Both the position numbers and the translations under genes were made by a program. The notes below the pieces were generated by a model that made no database searches, was not told the origin of the DNA, and saw only the letters and a program-made list of their open reading frames with translations. From Candidatus Doudnabacteria bacterium (GTDB lineage Bacteria; Patescibacteriota; Doudnabacteria; UBA920), in assembly GCA_031291995.1 (NCBI GenBank), contig JARLHZ010000025.1:156266-220265 (forward strand): a stretch of DNA of 64,000 bases. Reading direction: 5' to 3'. Below are positions 3,216 to 63,713 of the stretch, piece by piece. Position 1 is the first letter of the stretch. Every line of letters starts with the position of its first letter.

Positions 3216-3230
3216 TTAGGTTTACGAAGT

Positions 3231-3288
3231 ACGAAGTTTTACGAACTTACGAAGTTCGTAAGTTCGTATTTGTTCGTACTTCGTAAAA
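3231..3288. repeat. Hairpin repeat family 1, copy 2, between prfA and prmC
   Basis: Same arms as 484-566 but lacks the central 15-nt ttagtgcacaaactt segment. Confidence 0.8.
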
Positions 3289-3291
3289 TAT

Positions 3292-4203
3292 ATGCGCATA
3301 AACGAAGCGCTAAAAAAGTATCATAAAATCGAAATAGAACTCCTGCTGGCGCATGTGTTAAGAAAGCCTAGGGAGTTCGTTTTTATGAATGCGGGGGTTA
3401 GCTTGCCAGCTATTCAGCTAATCAGGCTATCAGCCTTGGCAAGGCGCAGGCAAAAGGGCGAGCCGCTGGCTTATATTTTGGGTTATAAGGATTTTTACGG
3501 AATGCGGTTTAAGGTCAATCGCTACGTGCTAATCCCCCGCCCGGAGACGGAAATAATTGTGGACCGGGTTATAAATGTAGTGCAGGCCCGTGGCCTGCCC
3601 TCCAGTAATAAAAAGCAGGGCAAGGCCCTGCACTACAAGCCCCCGGTGAGAATTCTCGACATCGGCACCGGCAGTGGCTGCATAGCTGTTTCGCTGGCGA
3701 AACAATTTCAAATTTCAAATATCAAATTTCAAATTACAGCGTCCGATAATTCACAAGACGCACTTAACGTGGCCAAACAAAACGCTAGAATACTTTTGGG
3801 CAAAAAGTCCAATAGTATAAACTATGCTACTTTTTCCAAAATTAAATTTGTACAAAGCGATTTGCTAACGAATATTCAAAATCGCTTTGATATAATCGTG
3901 GCCAATCTCCCCTACGGCTGGAACGAGTGGAAGAATAATACTTCAGCCGACAGCGCCGGCTTGAAATTTGAGCCAAGCCAGGCTTTGTATACAGCCGATC
4001 ATGGTCTCTATCAGATAAAACGATTATTAATGCAAATCTCTGCTAGGCAAATCAAACCCAAGCTGGTTTATTTGGAATTTGACCCGCGCCAAAAAAAGGA
4101 ATTATCATTTGCAATAAAAAAAATCCTGCCTTCCGCAGAACTTAATTTTTTCAAAGATTATGCCGGCCTGTGGCGCTACGCGGAAATTAAATTCGCATCG
4201 TAA
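3292..4203 (+). CDS. prmC: Release factor glutamine N5-methyltransferase (HemK/PrmC family)
   Basis: SAM-binding motif ILDIGTGSGCIAV and an NLPYG variant of the NPPY catalytic motif. The position right after prfA is the conserved pairing. Confidence 0.75.
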   Translation: MRINEALKKYHKIEIELLLAHVLRKPREFVFMNAGVSLPAIQLIRLSALARRRQKGEPLAYILGYKDFYGMRFKVNRYVLIPRPETEIIVDRVINVVQARGLPSSNKKQGKALHYKPPVRILDIGTGSGCIAVSLAKQFQISNIKFQITASDNSQDALNVAKQNARILLGKKSNSINYATFSKIKFVQSDLLTNIQNRFDIIVANLPYGWNEWKNNTSADSAGLKFEPSQALYTADHGLYQIKRLLMQISARQIKPKLVYLEFDPRQKKELSFAIKKILPSAELNFFKDYAGLWRYAEIKFAS

Positions 4204-6797: not shown

Positions 6798-6801
6798 AGG
6801 T

Positions 6802-6930
6802 AGTAATCGCGAAAATACGAATATTTTATAATATACGAAACCGTTCACTGTCAGCTGTCTTTTCCATTAAAGATAAGCTGACAACTAACGGTTTTGTATA
6901 TTAATTTAGATTTGTATATTTGCGACTACT
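6802..6930. repeat. MITE-like repeat family 2, copy A (degenerate)
   Basis: About 40-bp terminal inverted repeats agtaatcgcgaaaatacgaatatttt... / ...tttgtatatttgcgactact. The internal cactgtcagc...gctgacaact inverted repeat is shared with copies at 9053-9180 and 31141-31270. Confidence 0.8.
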
Positions 6931-6949
6931 ATTATGGTAGCATAATTTT

Positions 6950-8990: not shown

Positions 8991-9052
8991 TTTGGTTGTT
9001 GTTTTGTTATAGGTTTATTATAGCAAAGATATTGGATTTTTGGTATATTTAG

Positions 9053-9180
9053 AGTAATCGCTAATATACGAATCATTTATAATATACGAAGCGGTCCACT
9101 GTAAGCCGCCTGTTCTACGAAGTAATGCCTACAACTGACGGCTTCGTATATTAATTTTGATTCGTATATTCGCGATTACT
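9053..9180. repeat. MITE-like repeat family 2, copy B (best-preserved TIRs)
   Basis: agtaatcgctaatatacgaatcatttataatatacgaagcgg ... ccgtcttcgtatattaattttgattcgtatattcgcgattact, a near-perfect 40-bp TIR pair, immediately upstream of dnaE. Confidence 0.85.
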
Positions 9181-9199
9181 ATCGTGATTGCAAAAAACT

Positions 9200-12100
9200 A
9201 TGAGTTTTACCCATCTTCACTGTCATTCTCATTATTCGCTTTTGGACGGCTTGTCAAAAATTGAGCCGCTGGTTTTGCGCGCCAAGGAACTGGGAATGGC
9301 CAGTCTGGCTTTAACCGACCACGGGGTTATGTACGGAGCGGTGGAATTTTATAATGAGTGCAAAGGCGCGGGGATAAAACCGATTATCGGCATGGAAGCT
9401 TACATTGCCCCGCGCACCATGGCCGATAAAGAAGGCAAGATTGACGCCGACTACCATCATCTTATTTTATTGGCGCAAAATCAGGCCGGTTACCATAATT
9501 TAATGAAGCTTTCGACCCAGTCGCATCTTGAGGGTTTTTATTATAAGCCCAGGATAGATTTGGCTTTGCTAAAACAATATGGCGAAGGCCTGGTGTGCCT
9601 GTCCGGCTGCCAGCGCGGCGAAATCGCGCGCGCTCTTATGAACCGCGAGAGCGGTGAGGCGCAAAAAGTTTTGGATAAATATTTGGATATATTCGGGCCG
9701 GAAAGGCTGTTTATAGAAATCCAGCGTAACGCCAAAACCGAAGCCGCGCGCGAGGAAATGCTTAACGGCAAACTCATCGCGCTGGCTAATGCCAATAATT
9801 TGAGCGTGGTCGCCACTGCCGATTGCCATTATATTTATCCTGAAGATGCCGAAGCCCAGGATGTTATGGTTTGCATCGGCACGGGCCGCACGGTTAACGA
9901 TACCGACCGCTTAGATATGCGCGAATATGATTTGTCGCTTAAGTCGCCCGAAAAAATGCGGGAACTGTTTGCCGATGTTCCCGAAGCAGTGGCCAACACG
10001 CAAAAAGTCGCCGATTTGTGCGAGCTCGAGATTGAGCTTGACCAGCGCTATTTTCCCAACGTGGAAATCCCGGACGGCAAAACCGCGGAGCAGTACGTAA
10101 AAGAAATTACCAATGAAAAAGCGTTGATTTTGTACGGAAAAGATGGTGCGTTGCCCCAGCAGGTTAAAGAGCGCATAGATTATGAGATGGAAATAATCTG
10201 CAAAAAAAACTTCGTCACTTATTTTCTAATGGTGGCCGATGTGGTGGAGGGCGCCCACAAAATCGGGGCTATTACGAATACCAGGGGCTCGGCGGCCGGC
10301 AGCATAGTGGGCAGGATTTTGGGCATTACCAATATTGATCCGCTATTTTACGAACTTCCCTTTGAGCGGTTTTTGACTATGCACCGGCCGACACCGCCCG
10401 ATATAGATTTGGACATTGCCGATAACCGCCGCGACGAGGTAGTCGCGTATATTACGCAGAAGTACGGCCGGGATAAAGTCGCGCAAATTATTACCTTTGG
10501 AACCATGATGGCGCGGGCCGCCGTGCGCGATGTCGGCCGGGCTTTGGGCGTAACTTATTCCAAATGCGACCAGATTGCCAAAATGATTCCCCTCGGCAAG
10601 CAGGGTTTCCACATGACTCTGGATAAGGCGCTGGAAATGAGCCCGGAACTTAAGGAAATTTACGCGCGCGACCCCGAAACCAGGCGCATACTGGATATTG
10701 CCAAAAAAATGGAAGGCTGCGCCCGCCACGCTTCGGTACACGCGGCCGGTATTGTCATTACCCCGACCGAGCTGACTGATTATACTCCCCTGCAAAAAGA
10801 GCCGGACGGCGAAAAAATTATTACCCAGTACGATATGTATTCGCTCGACGTTAACACCAGCGGTCCAAAAGCCGTCGGCGTGGTGAAACTGGACTTATTG
10901 GGCATACGCAACCTGTCGATTTTGGAAACAGCGGTTACTCTGGCCCAAAACCGGCATAATATTTCCATTGACATCTATAATTTGCCGAGCCAGGATGCCA
11001 AAACTTTCAAACTGTTGTCCGACGGTTTAACTTTCGGTGTGTTCCAGCTTGGCTCTTCGGGCATGACTAGGAATTTGCGCGAACTGCGGCCGACCAATAT
11101 TTTTGATATTTCGGCGATGGTCGCTTTATACCGGCCGGGCCCGATGAGTATTATTCCGGACTATGTGGCCAGGAAAAACGGCCGGGCCAAAATTGAATAT
11201 TTCGACCCAAGGATGAAAAGTTATTTGGAAAAATCTTTGGGGCTTTTGGTGTACCAGGAAGATGTACTGCTGACGGCCATCCATATTGCCGGTTATAGCT
11301 GGGAGGAAGCGGACAAACTTCGAAAAGCCATGGGGAAAAAAATACCGGCCGAAATGGCCAAACAAAAATTTAAGTTTACCGAAGGCTGCGTTAAAAACGG
11401 CATGCCCCGCGTCAGGGCCGAGGAACTGTTCGGCTTAATCGAGCCGTTTGCCGCTTACGGTTTCGGCAAAGCCCACGCGGCATCGTATGCCATGGTTTCC
11501 TACCAGACCGCCTACATGAAGGCGAATTTTCCGGTGGAATTTATGGCCGCGCTTATGACCGCGGAATCCGGGGACGAAGACAAAATATATGAGGCCGTGG
11601 AAGAATGCGGACATATGGGGATTACGGTTTTGCCGCCGGACGTCAACGAGTCGCTTGGCGATTTTACCGTCGTGGACGACAAAACTATCCGGTTCGGTTT
11701 GAACGCGATTAAAAATTTGGGAAGCGATGTGATTGAGAAGGTTATACAGATTAGGGTTGAAGGTACAGGGTTCAGGGAAGATAATCCGGAAAATCACCCC
11801 TCACCCCTCACCCCTCACCCCTTTTCATCCCTTGAAGATTTTTTGATAAAATCACATACCAAGAATTTAAACAAAAAATCCTGGGAGGCTTTGGCCAAAG
11901 CCGGGGCGCTGGATTCTTTTGGCGAGCGCGGCCAGTTGCTGGCCAATACTGAAGACGTTCTTGATTTTGTGCGCCAGCATTTTAAGGACGAAAACAGCGG
12001 GCAGAATTCCCTATTCGGAAAAAGTCTTCAAAGGGGACGCTTGAAATTACGCGCGGCCGCCCCTGCTACCAAAGAGGAAATGCTGGTTTGGGAAAAAGAA

Positions 12101-12709
12101 CATTTGGGGATGTATGTGTCCGCGCACCCGCTGGACGTTTACCGCAAGGTTCTTTCTACCTTAAGGTCGGTTAAGAGCCTGTCATTAAACGAATTGGGGG
12201 CCAATGTGGTCATGGGTGGAATAATCTCGCGCCTAAAAAAAACCCTCACACGGAAAAACGATCCGATGGCCTTTTTTACCCTGGAAGACACAACCGGCAG
12301 TTTGGAAGTCCTTGTGTTTCCAAAGGTTATGGAAAAAGTCGTTCCCCTATTGGCCGACGACCGGATTGTCCAGGTAACGGGCCGGCTGTCCGATAAAGAT
12401 GAAGAGCTGAAACTAATTGCCGAAGACATTAAAGACTTACCCAACGACGAAGTCTACGGCATGGCGCTGTCGGAGATGGAAAAAAATAAGAGCGTTGTCT
12501 TGCATATGGAGCGTTTGGCCGGCATGGAAATATTAAACATCATCAAAGAAATTTTGCAAAAACACCCGGGCAATGTCCAAGTCTATTTGTCCGTCGGCAC
12601 CGGCCAATCTTCCAAAAAAATAAAAACCCAGTCGCTCGTCGCGATGAGTAATAAATTAATGGCGGAATTGAGGACGGTGCCGGAGATTGATATGGTAGAC
12701 GTGGACTGA
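9200..12709 (+). CDS. dnaE: DNA polymerase III alpha subunit
   Basis: PHP-domain N-terminus (HLHCHSHYSLLDG), polymerase core and C-terminal OB domain. Start moved from the track's TTG at 9188 to the in-frame ATG at 9200. Confidence 0.95.
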   Translation: MSFTHLHCHSHYSLLDGLSKIEPLVLRAKELGMASLALTDHGVMYGAVEFYNECKGAGIKPIIGMEAYIAPRTMADKEGKIDADYHHLILLAQNQAGYHNLMKLSTQSHLEGFYYKPRIDLALLKQYGEGLVCLSGCQRGEIARALMNRESGEAQKVLDKYLDIFGPERLFIEIQRNAKTEAAREEMLNGKLIALANANNLSVVATADCHYIYPEDAEAQDVMVCIGTGRTVNDTDRLDMREYDLSLKSPEKMRELFADVPEAVANTQKVADLCELEIELDQRYFPNVEIPDGKTAEQYVKEITNEKALILYGKDGALPQQVKERIDYEMEIICKKNFVTYFLMVADVVEGAHKIGAITNTRGSAAGSIVGRILGITNIDPLFYELPFERFLTMHRPTPPDIDLDIADNRRDEVVAYITQKYGRDKVAQIITFGTMMARAAVRDVGRALGVTYSKCDQIAKMIPLGKQGFHMTLDKALEMSPELKEIYARDPETRRILDIAKKMEGCARHASVHAAGIVITPTELTDYTPLQKEPDGEKIITQYDMYSLDVNTSGPKAVGVVKLDLLGIRNLSILETAVTLAQNRHNISIDIYNLPSQDAKTFKLLSDGLTFGVFQLGSSGMTRNLRELRPTNIFDISAMVALYRPGPMSIIPDYVARKNGRAKIEYFDPRMKSYLEKSLGLLVYQEDVLLTAIHIAGYSWEEADKLRKAMGKKIPAEMAKQKFKFTEGCVKNGMPRVRAEELFGLIEPFAAYGFGKAHAASYAMVSYQTAYMKANFPVEFMAALMTAESGDEDKIYEAVEECGHMGITVLPPDVNESLGDFTVVDDKTIRFGLNAIKNLGSDVIEKVIQIRVEGTGFREDNPENHPSPLTPHPFSSLEDFLIKSHTKNLNKKSWEALAKAGALDSFGERGQLLANTEDVLDFVRQHFKDENSGQNSLFGKSLQRGRLKLRAAAPATKEEMLVWEKEHLGMYVSAHPLDVYRKVLSTLRSVKSLSLNELGANVVMGGIISRLKKTLTRKNDPMAFFTLEDTTGSLEVLVFPKVMEKVVPLLADDRIVQVTGRLSDKDEELKLIAEDIKDLPNDEVYGMALSEMEKNKSVVLHMERLAGMEILNIIKEILQKHPGNVQVYLSVGTGQSSKKIKTQSLVAMSNKLMAELRTVPEIDMVDVD

Positions 12710-12725
12710 CCGCGGATACGCGGAT
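12708..12725. repeat. 18-bp direct repeat, left copy (gaccgcggatacgcggat), overlapping the dnaE TGA stop
   Basis: Identical 18/18 to 13515-13532. Confidence 0.8.
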
Positions 12726-12972
12726 GTTGGCATCAATAACGCAATGTGATAAATTTAACGCCGAGAGAAGTGTTGGGCTTCGTCTCGGCGTTTGGATACC
12801 GGGTCAGGCGGTTACCTCCAGCGACGCTTGTGGGCGTCGGCATGGGTGACTAAATAAATCAGCCCCACGATACGTGGGAAGAGAATGCCAATTACTGTCA
12901 GCCACGCTTTTGCCGGCGTGTTGTGAAACTCGACTTTTATATCCCGATCCGGGATATTTTGGAGATATGCGA

Positions 12973-13158
12973 TTAGCAATCGCACGCTTTTTCCTCCTGC
13001 GGCGGTTTTGCCGAGCGTTTGCCCGGCACGTGAAATAAATACACGTAGACCAGTAGAGCGAGGTCTGCCACCAGGCAGATTGAGCCGGGCAAGATATAGC
13101 CCATCGCCCATAACACCCCGCAGGACACAGCCAAAACGGTTACTATCAACATAATCAA
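12973..13158 (-). CDS. Possible small two-TM membrane protein (61 aa) inside the DR-bounded segment
   Basis: Two clear hydrophobic helices (IMLIVTVLAVSCGVLWAMGYIL, ICLVADLALLVYVYLF) and a charged tail. No homology assignable; it may be part of a frameshifted longer gene. Confidence 0.25.
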   Translation of the reverse strand: MIMLIVTVLAVSCGVLWAMGYILPGSICLVADLALLVYVYLFHVPGKRSAKPPQEEKACDC

Positions 13159-13514
13159 AATCTATTCCAATTAAGTGGTTTTTGCAAGCTGTCGGAATGT
13201 TTGTTTGGAAATCCTCTAAAATTATTGCCATAAATGCTTGTGGACAACGCTGTGTGGACAACGCTGTTGCGCCCTTTCCCAGAATTTGATATATTGTATG
13301 CAGTTCTTCAAACAGCGATCCGGCTACCAACCGGGGAGTTTGAGACAAATTGCAATAAATCTGTTATGTTCTAGAGCCATAACGGATGAAAAGTCTTTTG
13401 ATATCAAAATCAAAAGAATTCTGGGACGGAAACGTTCTGCGTAGCAGGGCCCCAGGTTTGAGTTATCAAGTAAATGATATCTCAACCTTGGGGCTTTTAC
13501 GTTTTATTTACAGA

Positions 13515-13532
13515 GACCGCGGATACGCGGAT
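13515..13532. repeat. 18-bp direct repeat, right copy (gaccgcggatacgcggat)
   Basis: Identical to 12708-12725. Preceded by a + strand hairpin with a T-run (ccccaggtttgag...ctcaaccttgggg cttttacgtttt, about 13455-13505). Confidence 0.8.
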
Positions 13533-13574
13533 CGGCCCGTATTGAAGGACGAAATCAATAAATGGCGCTTCCGT

Positions 13575-13637
13575 GTGTCATCCCGACCGAGGTTCGTCAA
13601 TGGAATTTAATGGACGGACGGAGCGGAGGGATCCCTT
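13575..13637. repeat. Family 3 repeat, partial copy (left TIR gtgtcatcccgaccgag + ggagggatccctta core)
   Basis: Shares the left TIR and central core with 13951-14026 and 2022-2134; the right TIR is missing. Confidence 0.65.
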
Positions 13638-13650
13638 ATCCTTCTAAATT

Positions 13651-13941
13651 ATGCAAGACAGCCAGTATTTTGTATACATAATGTCCAGCGTCAGCGGAAC
13701 CTTTTATATAGGAGTAACCAATGATTTATATAAAAGAGTTTACCAACATAAAAGTAATATAATCGAAGGTTTTACGAAAAAGTACGAATGCCATAAACTG
13801 ATATATTTTGAAGAGACTTCCGATATAGAGAGCGCAATTTTAAGAGAAAAGCAGTTAAAAAATTGGAATCGCAAGAAAAAAGAATTTTTAATCGCGACAA
13901 AGAACGCAATCTGGAAAGATTTAAGTTTAGATTGGAAATAA
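13651..13941 (+). CDS. Small GIY-YIG nuclease-domain protein
   Basis: YFVYIM...GTFYIGVTNDLYKRVYQHK is the GIY-YIG motif; 96 aa. Flanked by family-3 repeat copies. Confidence 0.75.
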   Translation: MQDSQYFVYIMSSVSGTFYIGVTNDLYKRVYQHKSNIIEGFTKKYECHKLIYFEETSDIESAILREKQLKNWNRKKKEFLIATKNAIWKDLSLDWK

Positions 13942-13950
13942 ATTATTAGT

Positions 13951-14026
13951 GTGTCATCCCGAGCGAGTGCAGCCGAGTCGAGGGATCCCTCCGCTCGTCG
14001 GCTGCACTCCGCGGTCGGGATGACAC
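13951..14026. repeat. Family 3 repeat, 76-bp imperfect palindrome (gtgtcatcccgagcgagtgcagccgagtcgagggatccctcc...gtcgggatgacac)
   Basis: Blocks gtgtcatcccga / gtgcagccga / gggatcc are mirrored on both arms. It lies between the GIY-YIG gene and the thrS start. Confidence 0.8.
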
Positions 14027-14043
14027 ATAATGGAGATACGGGT

Positions 14044-15798
14044 ATGGATATAAATCAGCAATTACAAAACAAACGCCATTCGCTAGCGCACCTTTTGGCC
14101 GCGGCGGTAATTAAGTTGTATCCCGGGACTAAAAGAACCATCGGACCCGCGATTGATAACGGATTTTATTATGATTTTGAGTTTAAGGAGCCGATAACCG
14201 AAAAGGATTTGCCGAAAATCGAGAAAGAAATGAAAAAGCTCCAGAAAACCTGGTCGGCTTTCGAGCGCCGGGAAATAACGGCGGACGAGGCGCGCGATAT
14301 TTTTAAAGACAACCCTTATAAGTTGGAACTCATCGACGAATTTTCCAAAGAAGGCCAGACTTTGACCATGTATAAGTCCAGCCAGTACTTTGAAGATTTA
14401 TGCCGGGGCGGCCATGCCGAGGATATGTCTAAAATAGACCCCGAGTCTTTTAAGCTGTCCAAAGTTGCCGGGGCTTACTGGCGCGGTGACGAAAAAAATA
14501 AAATGCTGACCAGAATTTACGGTCTGGCCTTTGAAACTAAAGAGGATCTGGATAAATATTTAAACATGCTGGACGAAGCGGAAAAAAGGGATCATAAAAA
14601 ATTAGGCCCCGCCTTGGATTTATTTGTGTTTTCAGATTTGGTCGGCGCCGGCTTGCCGCTGTGGACGCCCAAAGGAACGCTGGTGCGCAATTTGCTGGAT
14701 GATTATGTATGGAGCCTGCGCAAAAGTATTGGTTATGAAAAAGTGGAAATTCCCCATATTACCAAAAAGGAATTGTACGAAAAAAGCGGCCATTGGGATA
14801 AATTTAAGAACGAGCTGTTCAGGATTACCACGCGCGAAGGCCATGAATTCGCCATGAAGCCGATGAATTGCCCCCACCACACGCAGATTTATGCAAGAAA
14901 ACTATTTAGTTATCGCGAGCTTCCCCAAAAATATTCCAACACGACAACATGCTATCGCGACGAGCAGACCGGCGAACTTTCCGGCCTTTCCCGTGTGCGG
15001 GCCTTTGCCCAGGATGATGCCCATGAATTTTGCCGCTTTGGCCAGGTAAAGCAAGACTTGGGCGATATTTGGGATAAAGTGGTTGAACCATTTTACGGCT
15101 CGTTCGGCTTTAAATTAAAATTGCGTTTATCGTTGCACGACCCGGCCCAGCCGGAAAAATATTTGGGCGGCCAGGAGCGCTGGCAACAGGCCGAAAGCAT
15201 ACTTCGGGAGTTGGCAAAAGAAAGACATGTAGAGTTTGTTGAAGCTCCCGGGGAAGCGGCTTTTTACGGGCCAAAGCTGGATTTTATGGCCATGGATTCA
15301 TTAGGCCGGGAGTGGCAAGTGGCAACTATCCAGCTCGATATGAATATGCCGGAACGTTTTGATTTATATTGTATTGACGAACAGGGCCAGCATGAGCGAA
15401 TTGTCATGCTGCATGCGGCTATTATGGGCTCAATTGAAAGATTCTTGTCTATATTAATTGAACACACAGCGGGCACTTTCCCGCTTTGGCTGTCCCCTGT
15501 CCAGGTGGCGGTATTGCCGATTGGCGATAAGCAGATTGAGTATGCTAGAGATACAATTAACAATTTACGATTAACAATTAACACGTTAAGGATTGAATTG
15601 GACGACCGGGCGGAATCCATAGGCAAAAAAATCCGCGAAGCCACTTTGCAAAAAATTCCTTACCAGTTAATAATCGGCGAAAAGGAAACCGAAGCCGGCA
15701 AAGTCGCTGTCCGCTTGCGCGACGGCACCAATTTGGGTCAAATTACCGTAAAGGAGCTGGCCGATAAAATAGAGTCGGAAATTGCAAATAAATTATAA
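14044..15798 (+). CDS. thrS: Threonyl-tRNA synthetase (lacks the N-terminal TGS domain; starts at the editing domain)
   Basis: HSLAHLLAAAVIKLYPGTKRTIGPAIDNGFYYDF matches the ThrRS N2 editing domain; class II catalytic core and C-terminal anticodon-binding domain follow. Start taken at ATG 14044 (MDINQ), downstream of the palindrome that the track ORF runs through. Confidence 0.9.
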   Translation: MDINQQLQNKRHSLAHLLAAAVIKLYPGTKRTIGPAIDNGFYYDFEFKEPITEKDLPKIEKEMKKLQKTWSAFERREITADEARDIFKDNPYKLELIDEFSKEGQTLTMYKSSQYFEDLCRGGHAEDMSKIDPESFKLSKVAGAYWRGDEKNKMLTRIYGLAFETKEDLDKYLNMLDEAEKRDHKKLGPALDLFVFSDLVGAGLPLWTPKGTLVRNLLDDYVWSLRKSIGYEKVEIPHITKKELYEKSGHWDKFKNELFRITTREGHEFAMKPMNCPHHTQIYARKLFSYRELPQKYSNTTTCYRDEQTGELSGLSRVRAFAQDDAHEFCRFGQVKQDLGDIWDKVVEPFYGSFGFKLKLRLSLHDPAQPEKYLGGQERWQQAESILRELAKERHVEFVEAPGEAAFYGPKLDFMAMDSLGREWQVATIQLDMNMPERFDLYCIDEQGQHERIVMLHAAIMGSIERFLSILIEHTAGTFPLWLSPVQVAVLPIGDKQIEYARDTINNLRLTINTLRIELDDRAESIGKKIREATLQKIPYQLIIGEKETEAGKVAVRLRDGTNLGQITVKELADKIESEIANKL

Positions 15799-25665: not shown

Positions 25666-25712
25666 ACGTTCAGCGGTAATATCAGCGTACTTATCAGCGT
25701 CAGTTCAGCGTC

Positions 25713-31140: not shown

Positions 31141-31270
31141 AGTAATCGCGAATATACAAATTTATTATTAATATACGAAGCGGTACACTGTAAGTTAATT
31201 TTTCTATTTTGATCGGCAGACAACTCTTGGTTTCGTATATTAATTTAAGATTCGTATATTCGCGATTACT
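31141..31270. repeat. MITE-like repeat family 2, copy C
   Basis: agtaatcgcgaatatacaaatttattattaatatacgaagcgg ... ggtttcgtatattaatttaagattcgtatattcgcgattact. It fills exactly the spacer between two minus-strand genes. Confidence 0.85.
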
Positions 31271-31619
31271 AGTTGACCCTGGTTAAAAACAGTACCGCGG
31301 AAAGTAAAATAAACTCCACAAAAAAACTTACCAGCGCGCTTAACGCGGCCAAAAAATCCTGCCTATTCTTAATTGCTCGAAAAAGAGTGAAATTAACAAT
31401 TAAGATTGCCATTCCAATAGCCGGAATAAAGTAGAGGTTCCGACCCGGCCCATACCATAAAACCCCGACTAATACGTTATAATGAAGCGCAAGAGGGCTT
31501 TGACCGGGTTTGATTTTGAAATAAAGGAACAAAAATGTTATAATGTTAAGCGTTAAGGATAACGCCCAAAGAAACCAAACATTTCTGAAATAGTTTTTTA
31601 TAATCGAAATAAAATCCAT
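31269..31619 (-). CDS. Small multi-TM membrane protein (possibly GtrA-like)
   Basis: Three to four hydrophobic helices. Start placed at the internal ATG to avoid overlap with the divergent GT39 gene; start uncertain. Confidence 0.4.
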   Translation of the reverse strand: MDFISIIKNYFRNVWFLWALSLTLNIITFLFLYFKIKPGQSPLALHYNVLVGVLWYGPGRNLYFIPAIGMAILIVNFTLFRAIKNRQDFLAALSALVSFFVEFILLSAVLFLTRVN

Positions 31620-38568: not shown

Positions 38569-38994
38569 TTAGGTCAGGGCCATTTGGGACATTTCGTAGA
38601 CTTTGGGAAGTGTGTCCAGGGATTTAATTTCTTCAATAGCAAAAAATTTGATGTCGCCGGTATTATGTTCGGGTTTTGGCGTAGGAATGCCACTGATAAT
38701 TTTACATTCGTAAGAGATAATCAAAATTTGCTGCTTGCTTCCGTCGAAAAATTCCCAAATGTTACTGATAATCTTCGGCAATAATCGGACAACTTTAACT
38801 TCTATCCCCGCTTCCTCCATGGCTTCCCGAATTACCGCCTGCTCCGGCTTTTCACCGAATTCTATCCCCCCGCCAACAAATTCCCACTTGCCATGAGTAT
38901 GCGCGGACTCCGGTTCGTAGCGTTTGGCTAACAAAATTTCTTGTTTGTCGTTGGTAACTATTGCGACCGCAATGGTATGTTGCTCTGGCTCCAT
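38569..38994 (-). CDS. NUDIX hydrolase
   Basis: Nudix box GGGIEFGEKPEQAVIREAMEEAGI. Confidence 0.85.
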   Translation of the reverse strand: MEPEQHTIAVAIVTNDKQEILLAKRYEPESAHTHGKWEFVGGGIEFGEKPEQAVIREAMEEAGIEVKVVRLLPKIISNIWEFFDGSKQQILIISYECKIISGIPTPKPEHNTGDIKFFAIEEIKSLDTLPKVYEMSQMALT

Positions 38995-38999
38995 AATTC

Positions 39000-40487
39000 C
39001 TAATTCCTAATTCCTAATTCAGTTTTCTTGTTTTCGTTTTTCATCGGCGGGAAAATTACGGTTTCGCGGATGGAACGGTCAGAAAGTATAGCAAAGAGTC
39101 TTTCCGAGACTCCGAAGCCGGCGGCCGGCGGCATGCCGTATTCCATGGCTTCCACATAGTCCTCGTCGAGCATTTGGGCTTCATCGTCTCCTGCCGTTCG
39201 CAGTTTCATCTGATCTTCAAAACGGGCGCGCTGGTCGAGCGGGTCGTTTAACTCACCAAAACCTTTGCCCAGCTCCGTGCCATAGGCCAAAATTTGCATT
39301 CTTTGGACTAATTTGGGGTTGTTCGGGTCGCGTTTGGCTAACGGTTCAAGCTCAACCGGCTGGTCCACCAAAAAGACCGGTTTGTTTGTTGGAATATGTT
39401 CGCGTACTTTTTTAAAAATTAAATCTATTAACCGGCCGCGGCCGGAAAAGTCTTCATACTTAATATGATTTTTGTCGCAATATTCCTTTAGCTGATTGTC
39501 CGTAGCTACCATTAAGTCGATATTTGTATGTTTTTTGAAAATTTCGACGTAGCTAACTTTTTCCCAGTCGCCGCTCCAATCGACTTTTTGGCCTCGCGAG
39601 CTGATTTCCAGAGTGCCAAAAGTTTCCCTGATGACAAATTGGTACATCTTCTGGCAAAATATCATCAGTTTTTCAAAATCGCCATACGCCCAATAAAATT
39701 CCAGTTGGGTATAATCCTGCAAATGTTCGGTATCTATGCCCTCATTGCGAAAAATACGGCCGATTTCAAAAACTTTTTCATACCCGGCCACCAACATTTT
39801 TTTTAGCGGCAGTTCGAGGCTTATGCGCAAATAAAAATCGCGATCAAGGGCGTTATGATGCGTAATAAAAGGCTTGGCTTCGGCACCGCCGACTGTGGCT
39901 TCCAAAACAGGCATCTCTACTTCCAAAAAACTTTTTTCCAAAAGATAACGGCGGAAGGAATTCCAAAATGTCGCCTTTTTAATGAACAGCTCCTTTGATT
40001 CTGGATTTGTTAAGATATCAAGATATCTTTTGCGCAGACGGATCTCTTCGTCCTGAATGCCGAAATGTTCGGAAGGCAAAGGCCTGAGGCTTTTGGCTAA
40101 CAACCGGAAACTCGCGGCCTGTAAAGTTTTTTCGCCTGTTTTGGTTTTAAAAAGTTTTCCGGTAGCTTCCACAAAGTCTCCGCTGTCAAAATTGGCCAAA
40201 AAAAACTTAAACTGCTCTTGTCCGACTTCGTCCGCTTTCAATAACATCTGAACTTTGGCCGTGCCATCGTCAATATGCGCGAATATAATCTTCCCCATAT
40301 CACGAAAGCTTCTAATCCTGCCGGCCAAGGAAATGCTTTTATCGGCTAGGCTGTCAAAATCATCAAGAGCTTCTTTGTTCGTGTTGGTTCTGCTGCTGGT
40401 GGTCGGATACGGATCAACCCCGGACTGCCTGATATTGTCCAGTTTTTGTTTACGGTTTTTGATTATGTCTTCTAAACGATCAGCCAT
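39000..40487 (-). CDS. lysS: Lysyl-tRNA synthetase, class II
   Basis: N-terminal OB anticodon-binding domain plus class II core; 495 aa. Its stop is only 5 nt from the NUDIX start. Confidence 0.95.
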   Translation of the reverse strand: MADRLEDIIKNRKQKLDNIRQSGVDPYPTTSSRTNTNKEALDDFDSLADKSISLAGRIRSFRDMGKIIFAHIDDGTAKVQMLLKADEVGQEQFKFFLANFDSGDFVEATGKLFKTKTGEKTLQAASFRLLAKSLRPLPSEHFGIQDEEIRLRKRYLDILTNPESKELFIKKATFWNSFRRYLLEKSFLEVEMPVLEATVGGAEAKPFITHHNALDRDFYLRISLELPLKKMLVAGYEKVFEIGRIFRNEGIDTEHLQDYTQLEFYWAYGDFEKLMIFCQKMYQFVIRETFGTLEISSRGQKVDWSGDWEKVSYVEIFKKHTNIDLMVATDNQLKEYCDKNHIKYEDFSGRGRLIDLIFKKVREHIPTNKPVFLVDQPVELEPLAKRDPNNPKLVQRMQILAYGTELGKGFGELNDPLDQRARFEDQMKLRTAGDDEAQMLDEDYVEAMEYGMPPAAGFGVSERLFAILSDRSIRETVIFPPMKNENKKTELGIRN

Positions 40488-45573: not shown

Positions 45574-45654
45574 GATATTAACGGATATTCGTTGATATTG
45601 AGATATTAATTATCCGCTAATATCTATAAATATCCATTAATATCAACTAATATC
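45574..45654. promoter_or_regulatory. Phased hexamer array: 4x GATATT (10/10/8-bp spacing) followed by 4x AATATC (exact 10-bp spacing)
   Basis: GATATT at 45574, 45584, 45594, 45602; AATATC at 45619, 45629, 45639, 45649. The whole 92-bp spacer between the tRNA-binding-domain gene and pheS is built from this dyad-symmetric array. Confidence 0.5.
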
Positions 45655-46140: not shown

Positions 46141-46187
46141 AAAGCGTCCGCGTCGTTCCGCGTTGGTTTCCGCGATTATCCGCGGGG

Positions 46188-60055: not shown

Positions 60056-60061
60056 ATGGCT

Positions 60062-60115
60062 TTCTACTAAATACTAAAAGATACTAAAGATACGAAATAC
60101 TAAACTTGAGATACT
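60062..60115. repeat. Left 54-bp terminal inverted repeat of GxxExxY cassette 1 (tctactaaatactaaaagatactaaagatacgaaatactaaacttgagatacta)
   Basis: The reverse complement of 60535-60588 matches it along its whole length, with a few mismatches. It overlaps the stop codon of the enclosed gene. Confidence 0.8.
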
Positions 60116-60501
60116 ATGTTGACTATTCGTTTACATACCACCCCTGTCTTGGTAAAGTTAGCCAGTATGCCAAGTTTGACATGCTCCAATTTGATATAAT
60201 CACTGAGCTGTTTAATATTTTTTATTCCGAAATTTTCGTGTTTCTTGATCTCCAAGATAATTTTGGCTTCGCCAATTTTGATTAGAAAATCCGCATAATA
60301 AATTCCGATAAACTTTCCCTCGTAATATAGCTTGATTGGATGTTGCTCAACAAAATCAATCCCAGCAAGTTTTAGAGCAATTGCAACAGCTTTTTGGTAA
60401 TGTTTTTCCAATAACTCGCCGCCCAGGTCTTTAAAGACCTTTATCAGAATTCCTACGATTTTATAATATTCATCTTTATAAACCAGGTCTTCCCTTAACA
60501 T
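60100..60501 (-). CDS. GxxExxY-family protein (PD-(D/E)XK nuclease-like), cassette 1
   Basis: YKIVGILIKVFKDLGGELLEKHYQKA N-terminus (GxxExxY motif G-E-L-L-E-K-H-Y); 133 aa. Inserted between atpD and atpC. Confidence 0.7.
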   Translation of the reverse strand: MLREDLVYKDEYYKIVGILIKVFKDLGGELLEKHYQKAVAIALKLAGIDFVEQHPIKLYYEGKFIGIYYADFLIKIGEAKIILEIKKHENFGIKNIKQLSDYIKLEHVKLGILANFTKTGVVCKRIVNIVSQV

Positions 60502-60534
60502 TTTCGTCTATTATTTTTATTTTCGCAAATATCT

Positions 60535-60588
60535 GTACTATCTAAGTTTAGTATTTAGTATATTTAGTATTCTTTCGTATTTAGTAGA
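60535..60588. repeat. Right terminal inverted repeat of GxxExxY cassette 1
   Basis: tactatctaagtttagtatttagtatatttagtattctttcgtatttagtagag is the reverse complement of the left TIR. Confidence 0.8.
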
Positions 60589-60593
60589 GAGGA

Positions 60594-63200: not shown

Positions 63201-63224
63201 TAGAAGCGAATTTGACGCGAAATT
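63201..63224. repeat. Left TIR of GxxExxY cassette 2 (tagaagcgaatttgacgcgaaatt)
   Basis: Matches the reverse complement of 63690-63713 (tagaagcgaatttgtcgcgaaatc) at 22/24 positions. Confidence 0.75.
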
Positions 63225-63245
63225 ACACGCGACTTTGACGCAAAC

Positions 63246-63659
63246 TTATTTATTCCTTGCTAAATCGTAAATTCTTCTTCTTATTTCCAATTTTTCGGGG
63301 TCAAAGTTTATAAGAAAGCCTAACTTGTAACTTGTGGCTTTAAAATAGTACCAAAATTGTTTCTCATCTGCCTTAGTTATAAATGGTTTGTTTTTTACTT
63401 CAACTAGTATTGCCTCATTCCCCACTTTATCCGGGACGTACGTACCAACCTTAGCGCCTTCAAAATAAATATCTATTCTTTTTTGGGACTCTACCTGTAA
63501 GCCTTGTTTTTCTAATGCGATTGTAAGAGCTTTGTCTACCACCGATTCTTTAAAGGCACCGCCAAACTGTTTATATACTTCACGACATGCGGCAACAATT
63601 TTGTAGCTTTCGTCAGGGTATAATAGATCCTTGTTGCGAATTTCTGGCCGGTTATCCAT
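63246..63659 (-). CDS. GxxExxY-family protein (PD-(D/E)XK nuclease-like), cassette 2
   Basis: YKIVAACREVYKQFGGAFKESVVDKAL N-terminus; 137 aa; paralog of 60100-60501. Inserted between atpA and atpG. Confidence 0.7.
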   Translation of the reverse strand: MDNRPEIRNKDLLYPDESYKIVAACREVYKQFGGAFKESVVDKALTIALEKQGLQVESQKRIDIYFEGAKVGTYVPDKVGNEAILVEVKNKPFITKADEKQFWYYFKATSYKLGFLINFDPEKLEIRRRIYDLARNK

Positions 63660-63689
63660 ATTTTCGCTTCGCGTTAATTTCGCTTAGCA

Positions 63690-63713
63690 GATTTCGCGAC
63701 AAATTCGCTTCTA
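63690..63713. repeat. Right TIR of GxxExxY cassette 2, overlapping the atpA stop codon
   Basis: See 63201-63224. Its last three bases (cta) are the rc TAG stop of atpA. Confidence 0.75.

Follow-up and report, generated by a model that had tools for sequence, protein, structure and literature searches.

A conserved leader RNA of T-box-like design in the dnaE-thrS intergenic region of Doudnabacteria

The window analysed here is a full stretch of 64,000 nucleotides (nt) of a Candidatus Doudnabacteria contig (JARLHZ010000025.1), in which dnaE, encoding the alpha subunit of DNA polymerase III, is followed on the same strand by thrS, encoding threonyl-tRNA synthetase (ThrRS). The 0.8-kb segment that begins at the dnaE stop codon (12708-13532) is bounded by two copies of an 18-mer and had been taken, in a first-pass annotation, for a small integrated element or else a small RNA (sRNA) or addiction locus. 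We consider it quite likely that this segment is the resident, ancestral dnaE-thrS intergenic region of Doudnabacteria, a phylum of the Candidate Phyla Radiation (CPR), and that it holds a T-box-like leader RNA of thrS which senses tRNA(Thr). From left to right, the segment would comprise the 3' end of dnaE (stop codon, CGCGGAT array and terminator hairpin), a minus-strand gene for a peptide with two transmembrane (TM) segments, a TGTGGAnAA site that is duplicated here, a promoter, the 204-nt thrS leader and a second CGCGGAT array. The three landmarks of the locus are the following.

9200..12709, plus strand: dnaE (DNA polymerase III alpha), identified by its exact product on Logan contigs and by PHP, DNA_pol3_alpha and related Pfam domains.
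13302..13505, plus strand: thrS leader RNA of 204 nt, a T-box-like candidate attenuator, recognised by covariation, minimum free energy (MFE) z-score and a covariance model.
14044..15798, plus strand: thrS (threonyl-tRNA synthetase), identified by tblastn and Pfam and preceded by the leader RNA.

The dnaE open reading frame (ORF) extends from 9188 or 9200 to 12709 and its TGA stop occupies 12707-12709. The encoded protein is 100% identical to an NCBI protein labelled 'Candidatus Doudnabacteria', and the next relatives are at most 78% identical. Two Logan contigs from other samples (L001 and L002; L-numbers designate the related or 18-mer-bearing loci compared with the window) match the window at 100% identity across the region, and no population variant was seen in the comparison of these two contigs. 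The dnaE neighbourhood was then compared in 20 related loci, with DnaE identities of 63-78%. Every one of them displays an ftsW-like gene, an unknown gene, dnaE, a gap of 0.5-1.1 kb and then thrS, and the gap contains no Pfam-annotated gene apart from an occasional small nuclease gene just before thrS. Because all relatives share both the gene order and the gap, the latter is best seen as ancestral, with no insertion here. Indeed, the empty site expected of an integrated element was looked for in relatives, and every relative carries the gap.

Within this gap, positions 13298-13509 share 70-85% nucleotide identity with relatives whose DnaE proteins are only about 76% identical, and the leader has an MFE z-score of -7.1, the adjacent coding sequence scoring near 0. 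Twenty leader loci were gathered, among them those retrieved with a pattern built from invariant blocks (12 more metagenome contigs from the Joint Genome Institute), L008 and three more distant relatives, and a consensus structure was derived from a 16-sequence alignment. The consensus comprises 58 pairs, 30 of them with compensatory changes, and 95.2% of the cells are paired, a level reached by none of 500 shuffles; sliding one strand by a single column brings the pairing down to 57% or less. The covariance model recovers all 20 loci at 92-207 bits, with exactly one copy per locus, and detects no second copy elsewhere in the window, including upstream of cysS, serS, a class II D/K/N synthetase gene and pheS. 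A loose pattern (GATGAA..GGGACGGAAAC) produced 120 chance matches in viral contigs, and the covariance model rejected all 80 of the loci tested (707 kb), which therefore provide a specificity control for the model. No Rfam family matched the leader, whether the query was 3.5 kb of sequence or the RNA alone. The leader is thus a real and conserved cis-acting RNA of thrS, with the alternative pairings described below. The earlier guess of an sRNA had correctly placed the end of a discrete structured RNA at about 13505, but this RNA is a conserved cis-acting leader and not a newly landed one. Its elements are as follows.

13307-13313 / 13338-13344, plus strand: P1, leader helix.
13314-13319 / 13335-13337, plus strand: K-turn-like loop, in which both strands carry GA and there is a 3-nt bulge.
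13320-13323 / 13331-13334, plus strand: P2, with the apical 7-nt loop CUACCAA at 13324-13330.
13359-13368 / 13378-13387, plus strand: P3, a regular stem of 10 bp capped by the invariant loop UUCUAGAGC.
13388-13393, plus strand: GAAAAG, a purine string between P3 and P4.
13394-13417, plus strand: P4, a variable and fully covarying hairpin.
13421-13425 / 13451-13455, plus strand: A1, CUGGG with CCCAG.
13426-13433, plus strand: bulge ACGGAAAC, 8 nt, GG-containing, between A1 and A2.
13434-13438 / 13446-13450, plus strand: A2, GUYYY with RRRAC.
13446-13497 and U tail, plus strand: terminator of 23 bp with 10 compensatory pairs.

The apical loop of P2 (NNACCAA) contains an ACCAA that is invariant in all 20 sequences, and the stem beneath it covaries at each of its four pairs. 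ACC is a threonine codon, complementary to the anticodon GGU. Below P2, the pattern P1-NNN-GA-U / G-GA-P1 agrees, as a sequence pattern, with the K-turn consensus in 14 of the 16 aligned sequences. The linker that leads from P1/P2 to P3 ends in AAUAAAUC; P3, which the leader of L062 lacks, is followed by GAUGAAAAG and then by P4. Downstream of P4 come the invariant stretch AAUUCUGGGACGGAAACGU, a variable hairpin and the terminator. This invariant stretch also resembles the T-box sequence AAUUAGGGUGGNACCGCG, a likeness that serves as a lead only.

The invariant stretch has two alternative folds, either the local hairpin GGGACG-GAAA-CGUYYY (P5) or the combination of A1, the bulge and A2. In the second fold, the 3' strand of A1/A2 is continuous and doubles as the 5' half of the terminator. 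Columns 138-142/199-203 (A1) and 151-155/194-198 (A2) are 98.8% paired, with slid controls at 66% or less, and compensatory changes occur at three of the five A2 pairs. Columns 153-155 are restricted to pyrimidines and can thereby pair both with the invariant GGG of P5 and with the covarying purines of A2, the signature of a switch and what would be expected if both folds matter. The plus-strand stem-loop with a T-run noticed early on just inside the right repeat is indeed present (13446-13497, with its tail to 13505) and corresponds to this terminator. In all 16 aligned sequences, the terminator fold is favoured over the antiterminator by 13-24 kcal/mol; the default is therefore predicted to be OFF, and a ligand would be needed for ON.

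The link with thrS is strict: in all 19 loci with enough downstream sequence, the gene lies 3' of the leader and on the same strand. The RNA is kept while ThrRS falls from 85% to as little as 34% identity to the window protein, so that the leader is more constant than the enzyme. From the U-run to the thrS ATG, the distance is 31 nt in L052, ribosome-binding site included, and 88-109 nt in L048, L046 and L055; since only 31 nt separate terminator and ATG in L052, thrS must be transcribed through the terminator. From this architecture we infer a transcription attenuator of T-box type, whose effector is fairly probably tRNA(Thr). By default, the strong terminator at 13446-13497 with its U tail would form and transcription would stop. 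The ACC of the P2 apical loop, on a hairpin supported by the candidate K-turn, would pair with the GGU anticodon; uncharged tRNA would stabilise the A1/A2 helix, the GG-containing bulge ACGGAAAC presumably contacting the tRNA 3' end. Polymerase could then read through into thrS and into any selfish mini-gene located in between.

Upstream of the leader lie a duplicated site and a putative promoter.

13239..13266, plus strand: tandem TGTGGACAACGCTG x2, each copy with a conserved TGTGGAnAA site.
13268..13296, plus strand: predicted leader promoter, with -35 TTGCGC, a 17-nt spacer and -10 TATATT.

In relatives, hexamers resembling TTGCCA-N17-TATAAT are found at a fixed distance from the 5' end of the RNA, and TGTGGA[ACT]AA occurs 5 nt upstream of the -35 element in 16 of the 16 loci reaching that far. 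The 14-bp tandem duplication described in the first-pass annotation was recovered at 13239-13266, and it gives the window two copies of the site at a 14-nt period, L058 having three. Other copies of TGTGGAnAA in the window are within coding sequence and without a promoter. The motif is the same as, or very close to, the DnaA-box consensus TGTGGATAA. A replication origin with a DnaA-box cluster was also considered, as TGTGGACAA resembles a DnaA box, and was rejected: only the two duplicated boxes are present, and the GC skew does not turn at 13 kb. As a separate observation, a small hairpin, TAGCCCGCCTTGC...GCAAGTCGAGGCAGG, sits between the -10 element and the RNA 5' end in L044, L053 and L058 and is found in L054 as well; it appears to be another mobile mini-hairpin.

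The left 590 bp of the segment have a different content.

12757..12792, plus strand: hairpin AACGCCGAGA...TCTCGGCGTT, an inverted repeat and probable dnaE terminator.
12863..12879, minus strand: terminator-like hairpin with a T-run, located by a consensus scan downstream of the 61-aa ORF and putatively its terminator.
12973..13158, minus strand: 61-aa ORF with two predicted TM segments, with an alternative ATG at 13152, nested in the 178-aa ORF.
12812..13348, minus strand: 178-aa ORF, judged spurious, overlapping the 61-aa ORF and the leader promoter.

Among relatives, no sequence conservation of 12726-13300 was detected besides the hairpin at 12757-12792, the sole part of these 590 bp that shows nucleotide similarity to a relative (L043, 81% across 48 nt). 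The segment had been said to contain no convincing gene. Both ORFs exist, and for the 178-aa one the scepticism was justified: it is an orphan that retrieved only itself and one marginal match (E 4e-4) among 1.84 billion representatives, it has no Pfam domain, and the ORFs called at the corresponding place in relatives are unrelated. The 61-aa ORF, on the other hand, probably is a real gene. Minus-strand ORFs of at least 40 aa with a clear TM segment are found in 12 of 13 dnaE-leader gaps, with none of the 13 having one on the plus strand; hydrophobic minus-strand ORFs were expected in 0.37 of 13 gaps, with a maximum of 3, over 200 dinucleotide-shuffle trials. Relatives often carry two small hydrophobic ORFs on this strand, and the small membrane ORFs of several relatives have good Shine-Dalgarno sites. 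A putative promoter, TTGCAA-17-TAGATT, is seen at 13158-13186 on the side of the minus-strand ORF. No homologue of the 61-aa ORF was retrieved from a 5.8-billion-protein index, and homology among the small membrane ORFs was rejected, their phmmer scores being no better than those of shuffles of the same composition. Judging from these sequence features, the 61-aa ORF probably represents a fast-evolving gene for a small membrane protein, divergently transcribed from the leader and presumably translated.

The two boundary repeats belong to longer arrays of short words.

12708..12745, plus strand: word array 1, GAC-CGCGGAT-A-CGCGGAT (18-mer copy 1) and two degenerate words (..CAAT and AACGCAAT), with the spacing of CPR arrays.
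13515..13555, plus strand: word array 2, 18-mer copy 2 and degenerate words; its orthologue in L050 and L008 is the inverted array on the left of a PD-(D/E)XK cassette.

As first reported, GACCGCGGATACGCGGAT occurs at 12708-12725 and 13515-13532, on the plus strand both times and in exactly two copies in the window, with no further copy at up to 3 mismatches. Shuffles gave a chance expectation of 0.07 matches, and 1 in 100 reached two. The left copy was thought to supply three bases of the dnaE TGA; it supplies two (GA), since the stop is at 12707-12709. The sequence consists of two CGCGGAT words and opens a four-word CGCGGAT array; the self-complementarity of CGCG also allows the fold CCGCG-GAUA-CGCGG. 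A scan of one genome per GTDB species, a set that does not include the source genome of the window, returned 40 single matches, most of them in coding sequence of GC-rich genomes, and these look like chance. Eight matches are in CPR genomes (3 Doudnabacteria and 5 labelled Saccharibacteria), and all eight are intergenic. In most CPR cases, the 18-mer continues with two more CGCGGAT-like words at spacings of about 8, 10-11 and 9 nt, and it is present in at least 7 other CPR genomes or contigs. In L008, L032, L042 and the metagenome contig L050, the CGCGGAT array directly adjoins a PDDEXK_3 gene, and in L008 and L050 the gene is followed by an inverted copy of the array that directly precedes the thrS ATG; in L034, two inverted arrays adjoin each other without an intervening gene. 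Where the window has copy 2, right after the leader terminator, L050 has the exact 18-mer and L008 has 17 of its 18 positions. In relatives, too, the dnaE stop precedes a word array and a hairpin, but the array is built of different words (GTAGAAA, TTGGTAG, GTTAAAA), and none of the 20 relatives has 18-mer boundaries around the leader or gap. The two 18-mers are solo members of one repeat family whose first 18 nt are identical across many CPR genomes.

A third array of CGCGGA type is located at 46147-46184, immediately 3' of a stop codon, and the window as a whole has 14 arrays of at least three identical 6-mers at 7-12-nt spacing, mostly of four words, versus 0.2 in shuffles. Intergenic word arrays lie at 485-563, 3223-3285, 3708-3734, 25670-25711, 38994-39020, 45574-45654, 46147-46184, 60065-60088 and 60547-60570; they typically contain four copies of a 6-8-nt word that varies between loci, and often occur as inverted pairs forming long hairpins. 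Further repeats were observed along the window. TCACCCC is repeated four times at 11794-11822 in the dnaE frame, in a ...NHPSPLTPHP... linker whose length varies among DnaE relatives. A perfect 37-bp direct repeat, GTTTACGAAGTACGAAGTTTTACGAACTTACGAAGTT, stands at 482-518 and 3220-3256, 2.7 kb apart and around the prfA region; this pair consists of two copies of a word-array hairpin and likewise bounds a segment. A palindromic structure of about 145 bp with TACGAAT/ATTCGTA words is present in three copies, 76-90% identical (6801-6945, 9037-9196 and 31141-31271), one immediately preceding dnaE and another preceding the ftsW-like gene.

Between the leader and thrS, the window contains a nuclease cassette.

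13574..14027, plus strand: GIY-YIG mini-cassette, with its gene at 13651-13941 (Pfam GIY-YIG, E 1e-16) and flanking GTGTCATCCCGA...GGGATCCCT hairpin repeats.

The ORF finder and one gene caller place the thrS start at a GTG at 13951 (615 aa), across the right hairpin of this cassette (13951-14043), whereas alignment to relatives supports the ATG at 14044 (584 aa). The cassette before thrS is of GIY-YIG type in L047 and L056, of PDDEXK_3 type in L008, L043 and L050, and absent from L044, L046, L048, L052 and others; the GIY-YIG cassettes of L047 and L056 are orthologous to that of the window and occupy the same place. All seven genes found between leader and thrS are co-oriented with thrS. Downstream of 18-mer copy 2, the window is collinear with L050 up to the cassette start codon (AAATGG.GCTT), where the GIY-YIG cassette hairpin begins; this is weak evidence that the GIY-YIG cassette displaced a PD-(D/E)XK one and took over its site. 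A decayed PD-(D/E)XK or GIY-YIG gene was also sought in 12726-13260 and gave no tblastn signal.

Several side observations concern these cassettes. The GTGTCATCCCGA...GGGATCCCT hairpin repeats that flank the GIY-YIG gene (13574-13644 and 13950-14027) recur at 2008-2106, and related GTGTCA(C/T)CCCGAGCG sequences are found 3' of the leader terminator in L044, L047 and L056; they look like a second family of cassette flanks. Two PDDEXK_3-type mini-genes are present on the minus strand of the window (ORFs 60100-60501 and 63246-63659, in regions 60060-60591 and 63201-63713), both with inverted arrays of their own, made of other words, in the layout of the CGCGGAT-flanked cassettes of L008 and L050. 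L032, labelled Saccharibacteria, and L042, from Doudnabacteria, share about 70-80% identity over the PDDEXK_3 cassette, its CGCGGAT array and the 3' end of the upstream gene, which suggests either horizontal movement across CPR phyla or mis-assigned bins.

Other explanations were weighed for the segment as a whole and for its left part. Insertion of a small mobile or integrative element at the dnaE stop, with duplication of an 18-bp att or target site, would suit the perfect 18-bp direct repeats, which lie 807 bp apart with one over the stop codon and are unlikely by chance in one window, and it would suit the missing sequence conservation of the left 590 bp among relatives. We nevertheless find this hardly credible, for the right third of the supposed element is a leader RNA kept at the same position in 20 relatives, all of which have a gap of similar size. 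Besides, the 18-mer recurs across CPR genomes in arrays and cassette flanks, and there is neither an integrase, nor a composition shift (the GC content of the segment is unremarkable), nor similarity to phages or plasmids by blastn. The ORFs of the segment have no Pfam match, no recombinase or mobility gene was recognised among them, viral contigs contain no match to GACCGCGGATACGCGGAT, and no tRNA or tmRNA was found within the segment. In short, the att-duplication reading fails because the 18-mer is generic and because relatives hold the same content without a repeat boundary. As for the addiction locus, it would be a type I toxin-antitoxin module with the 61-aa ORF as hydrophobic toxin and an antisense RNA from the hairpin-rich region, an idea that draws on the small two-TM ORF, the dense hairpins on both strands (z -2 to -4), the rapid sequence turnover and the hydrophobic minus-strand ORFs in 12 of 13 gaps. 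This is improbable in our view, as the ORF has neither homologue nor family match and no conserved antisense RNA was found in the region; relatives often have two such ORFs with ordinary Shine-Dalgarno sites, and an ORF position that has stayed beside the same housekeeping genes through deep divergence points to a resident small membrane protein more than to a mobile addiction module. What survives of the addiction idea is that the 61-aa membrane ORF is probably a gene, but nothing marks it as a toxin.

For the RNA itself, the possibility of an independent trans-acting sRNA that merely adjoins thrS has in its favour the conserved promoter and strong terminator that the RNA possesses, as well as the interposition of another gene in 7 loci. 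It is very improbable, given that linkage and co-orientation with thrS hold in 19 of 19 loci, that the conserved alternative pairing overlaps the terminator, and that the thrS start lies only 31-106 nt past the terminator in L052, L048 and L046, with no room for a separate promoter in L052. A thrS attenuator answering to an effector other than tRNA deserves more consideration, although we regard it as unlikely: the leader might serve autoregulation by ThrRS, as does the E. coli thrS operator, or respond to another protein or a small molecule, its likeness to T-boxes being convergent. What speaks for such an effector is that the leader has neither the canonical UGGN bulge nor the G.U sensor pair, does not match the Rfam T-box model, and offers no assignable T-box counterpart for the invariant P3 loop UUCUAGAGC or the GGGACG-GAAA-CGUYYY hairpin. 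In the E. coli operator, ThrRS recognises the G35-U36 anticodon bases; the apical loop here, however, displays the codon ACC and not an NGU anticodon mimic, the arrangement of RRRxG-stem-AAUU and A1-bulge(GG)-A2 closely copies the T-box discriminator, and the RNA is conserved while ThrRS diverges to 34-45% identity.

Compared with known systems, the segment resembles att-site duplications at gene 3' ends in having direct repeats and in the overlap of one copy with the end of a conserved gene, but it differs by its lack of integrase and cargo, by its ancestral inter-repeat content and by a repeat that is multi-copy and found in many genomes. The word arrays recall REP/BIME-type (repetitive extragenic palindrome/bacterial interspersed mosaic element) and MITE-like (miniature inverted-repeat transposable element) repeats in being short, exclusively intergenic, often arranged as inverted hairpin pairs and numerous in each genome; unlike these, they are built of about four 7-9-nt words at spacings near 8/10-11/9, with words that vary by locus (CGCGGAT, TACGAAG, ATACTAAA, GATATT and others). 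We know of no described repeat family with this four-word design. The GIY-YIG (PF01541) and PDDEXK_3 (PF13366) mini-genes resemble selfish stand-alone nuclease genes in that they come and go between orthologous sites and are flanked by repeats. The integrated element as initially flagged would have been an ordinary finding, and the content of the segment is of more interest than its repeats: the locus cleanly illustrates the word-array repeats found throughout these genomes and shows selfish nuclease mini-genes (GIY-YIG, PD-(D/E)XK) settling between a leader and its gene. The translational operator of E. coli thrS, which mimics the anticodon arm of tRNA(Thr), is similar as a structured thrS leader with a recognition-like hairpin loop. 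It differs in that the leader described here presents the codon ACC instead of an NGU anticodon, and in that the E. coli operator occludes the ribosome-binding site where a terminator/antiterminator pair is used here.

The closest system is the T-box riboswitch (Rfam RF00230), especially the class with a short Stem I and an apical-loop specifier described for actinobacterial ileS. The defining features of T-boxes are taken here from PMC7583486: a specifier codon with a conserved purine after it, a K-turn (GA motif) at the foot of Stem I, a motif of the form 5'-RRRxG-Stem III-AA-3', an antiterminator of helices A1 and A2 in competition with a terminator hairpin, a 7-nt bulge with UGGN, called invariable, at its 5' edge and then ACC, and a G.U wobble at the base of A2 acting as steric sensor (PMC7583486). 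T-boxes with a short Stem I bear the specifier in the apical loop, act on translation and need the S-turn of Stem II together with the Stem IIA/B pseudoknot, or F-box (PMC7583486). Likewise, the RNA examined here lies on the same strand as an aminoacyl-tRNA synthetase gene, of which it is the leader, and exposes the cognate codon ACC, with a purine after it, on a short hairpin above a K-turn-like GA/GA loop. An RRRxG string (GAAAAG, or GAAAUG in L044 and L049) is followed by the covarying P4 and AAUU; the two-helix antiterminator has a GG bulge, its 3' strand is the 5' half of the terminator, and the terminator state is the more stable one.

Several observations weigh against this interpretation. 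The bulge counts 8 nt, ACGGAAAC, and is not the 7-nt UGGNACC, a C replacing the U and an extra A setting it back; the base pair at the foot of A2 (columns 151-198) is G-C in 16 of 16 sequences and not the G.U sensor; and the Rfam T-box model gave no match even at E up to 10, with queries of 3.5 kb and 246 nt. Neither a Stem II S-turn nor an F-box pseudoknot was recognised, nor an AGUA/GAA loop-E or CCGUYA. With the covariance model, no family member displaying another codon was found in the compared loci or the window, and neither the window nor 25 related loci contain a tRNA(Thr) gene whose discriminator base could be matched to the bulge; in T-boxes, which bind uncharged cognate tRNA, the N of the bulge covaries with that base. 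Lastly, the identity of the 18 nt of both arrays, in direct orientation and 807 bp apart, is left unaccounted for by an ancestral region, this geometry being seen in no relative. As the UGGN bulge, the G.U pair and an Rfam match are absent, the leader is not filed as a canonical T-box. The bulge is ACGGAAAC in 17 sequences, ACGGAAUC in L062 and ACGGAACC in L061, GG and the following A being kept throughout, and that of L061 approaches the canonical UGGNACC.

On balance, the leader most likely works like a T-box while being a non-canonical variant without the UGGN bulge. A more tentative proposal, which we hold to be possible but somewhat short of even chances, is that Doudnabacteria, and perhaps other CPR bacteria, carry a distinct branch of tRNA attenuators with T-box logic, the bulge ACGGAAAC and the UUCUAGAGC hairpin in place of Stem II and its pseudoknot, and, as part of the same proposal, that the four-word arrays may be inverted flanks or landing pads of PD-(D/E)XK mini-genes riding the thrS read-through transcript. 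No paper linking T-boxes to CPR or Patescibacteria was found in the limited literature set consulted, which is no proof of novelty. If such a branch exists, it would represent a second solution to aminoacylation sensing, in organisms without a catalogued T-box. What the locus offers at present is an uncatalogued and well-supported thrS leader RNA from a CPR phylum, combining T-box logic with a non-canonical discriminator. Should it bind tRNA(Thr), T-box-type regulation would extend to the reduced genomes of the CPR. In comparison with the T-boxes described so far, an invariant UUCUAGAGC hairpin loop stands where the Stem II features are expected, and a short Stem I is here combined with transcription termination whereas the described short-Stem-I forms are translational; were tRNA(Thr) indeed its ligand, the leader would be a natural variant with which to ask which features of the discriminator aminoacylation sensing truly needs.

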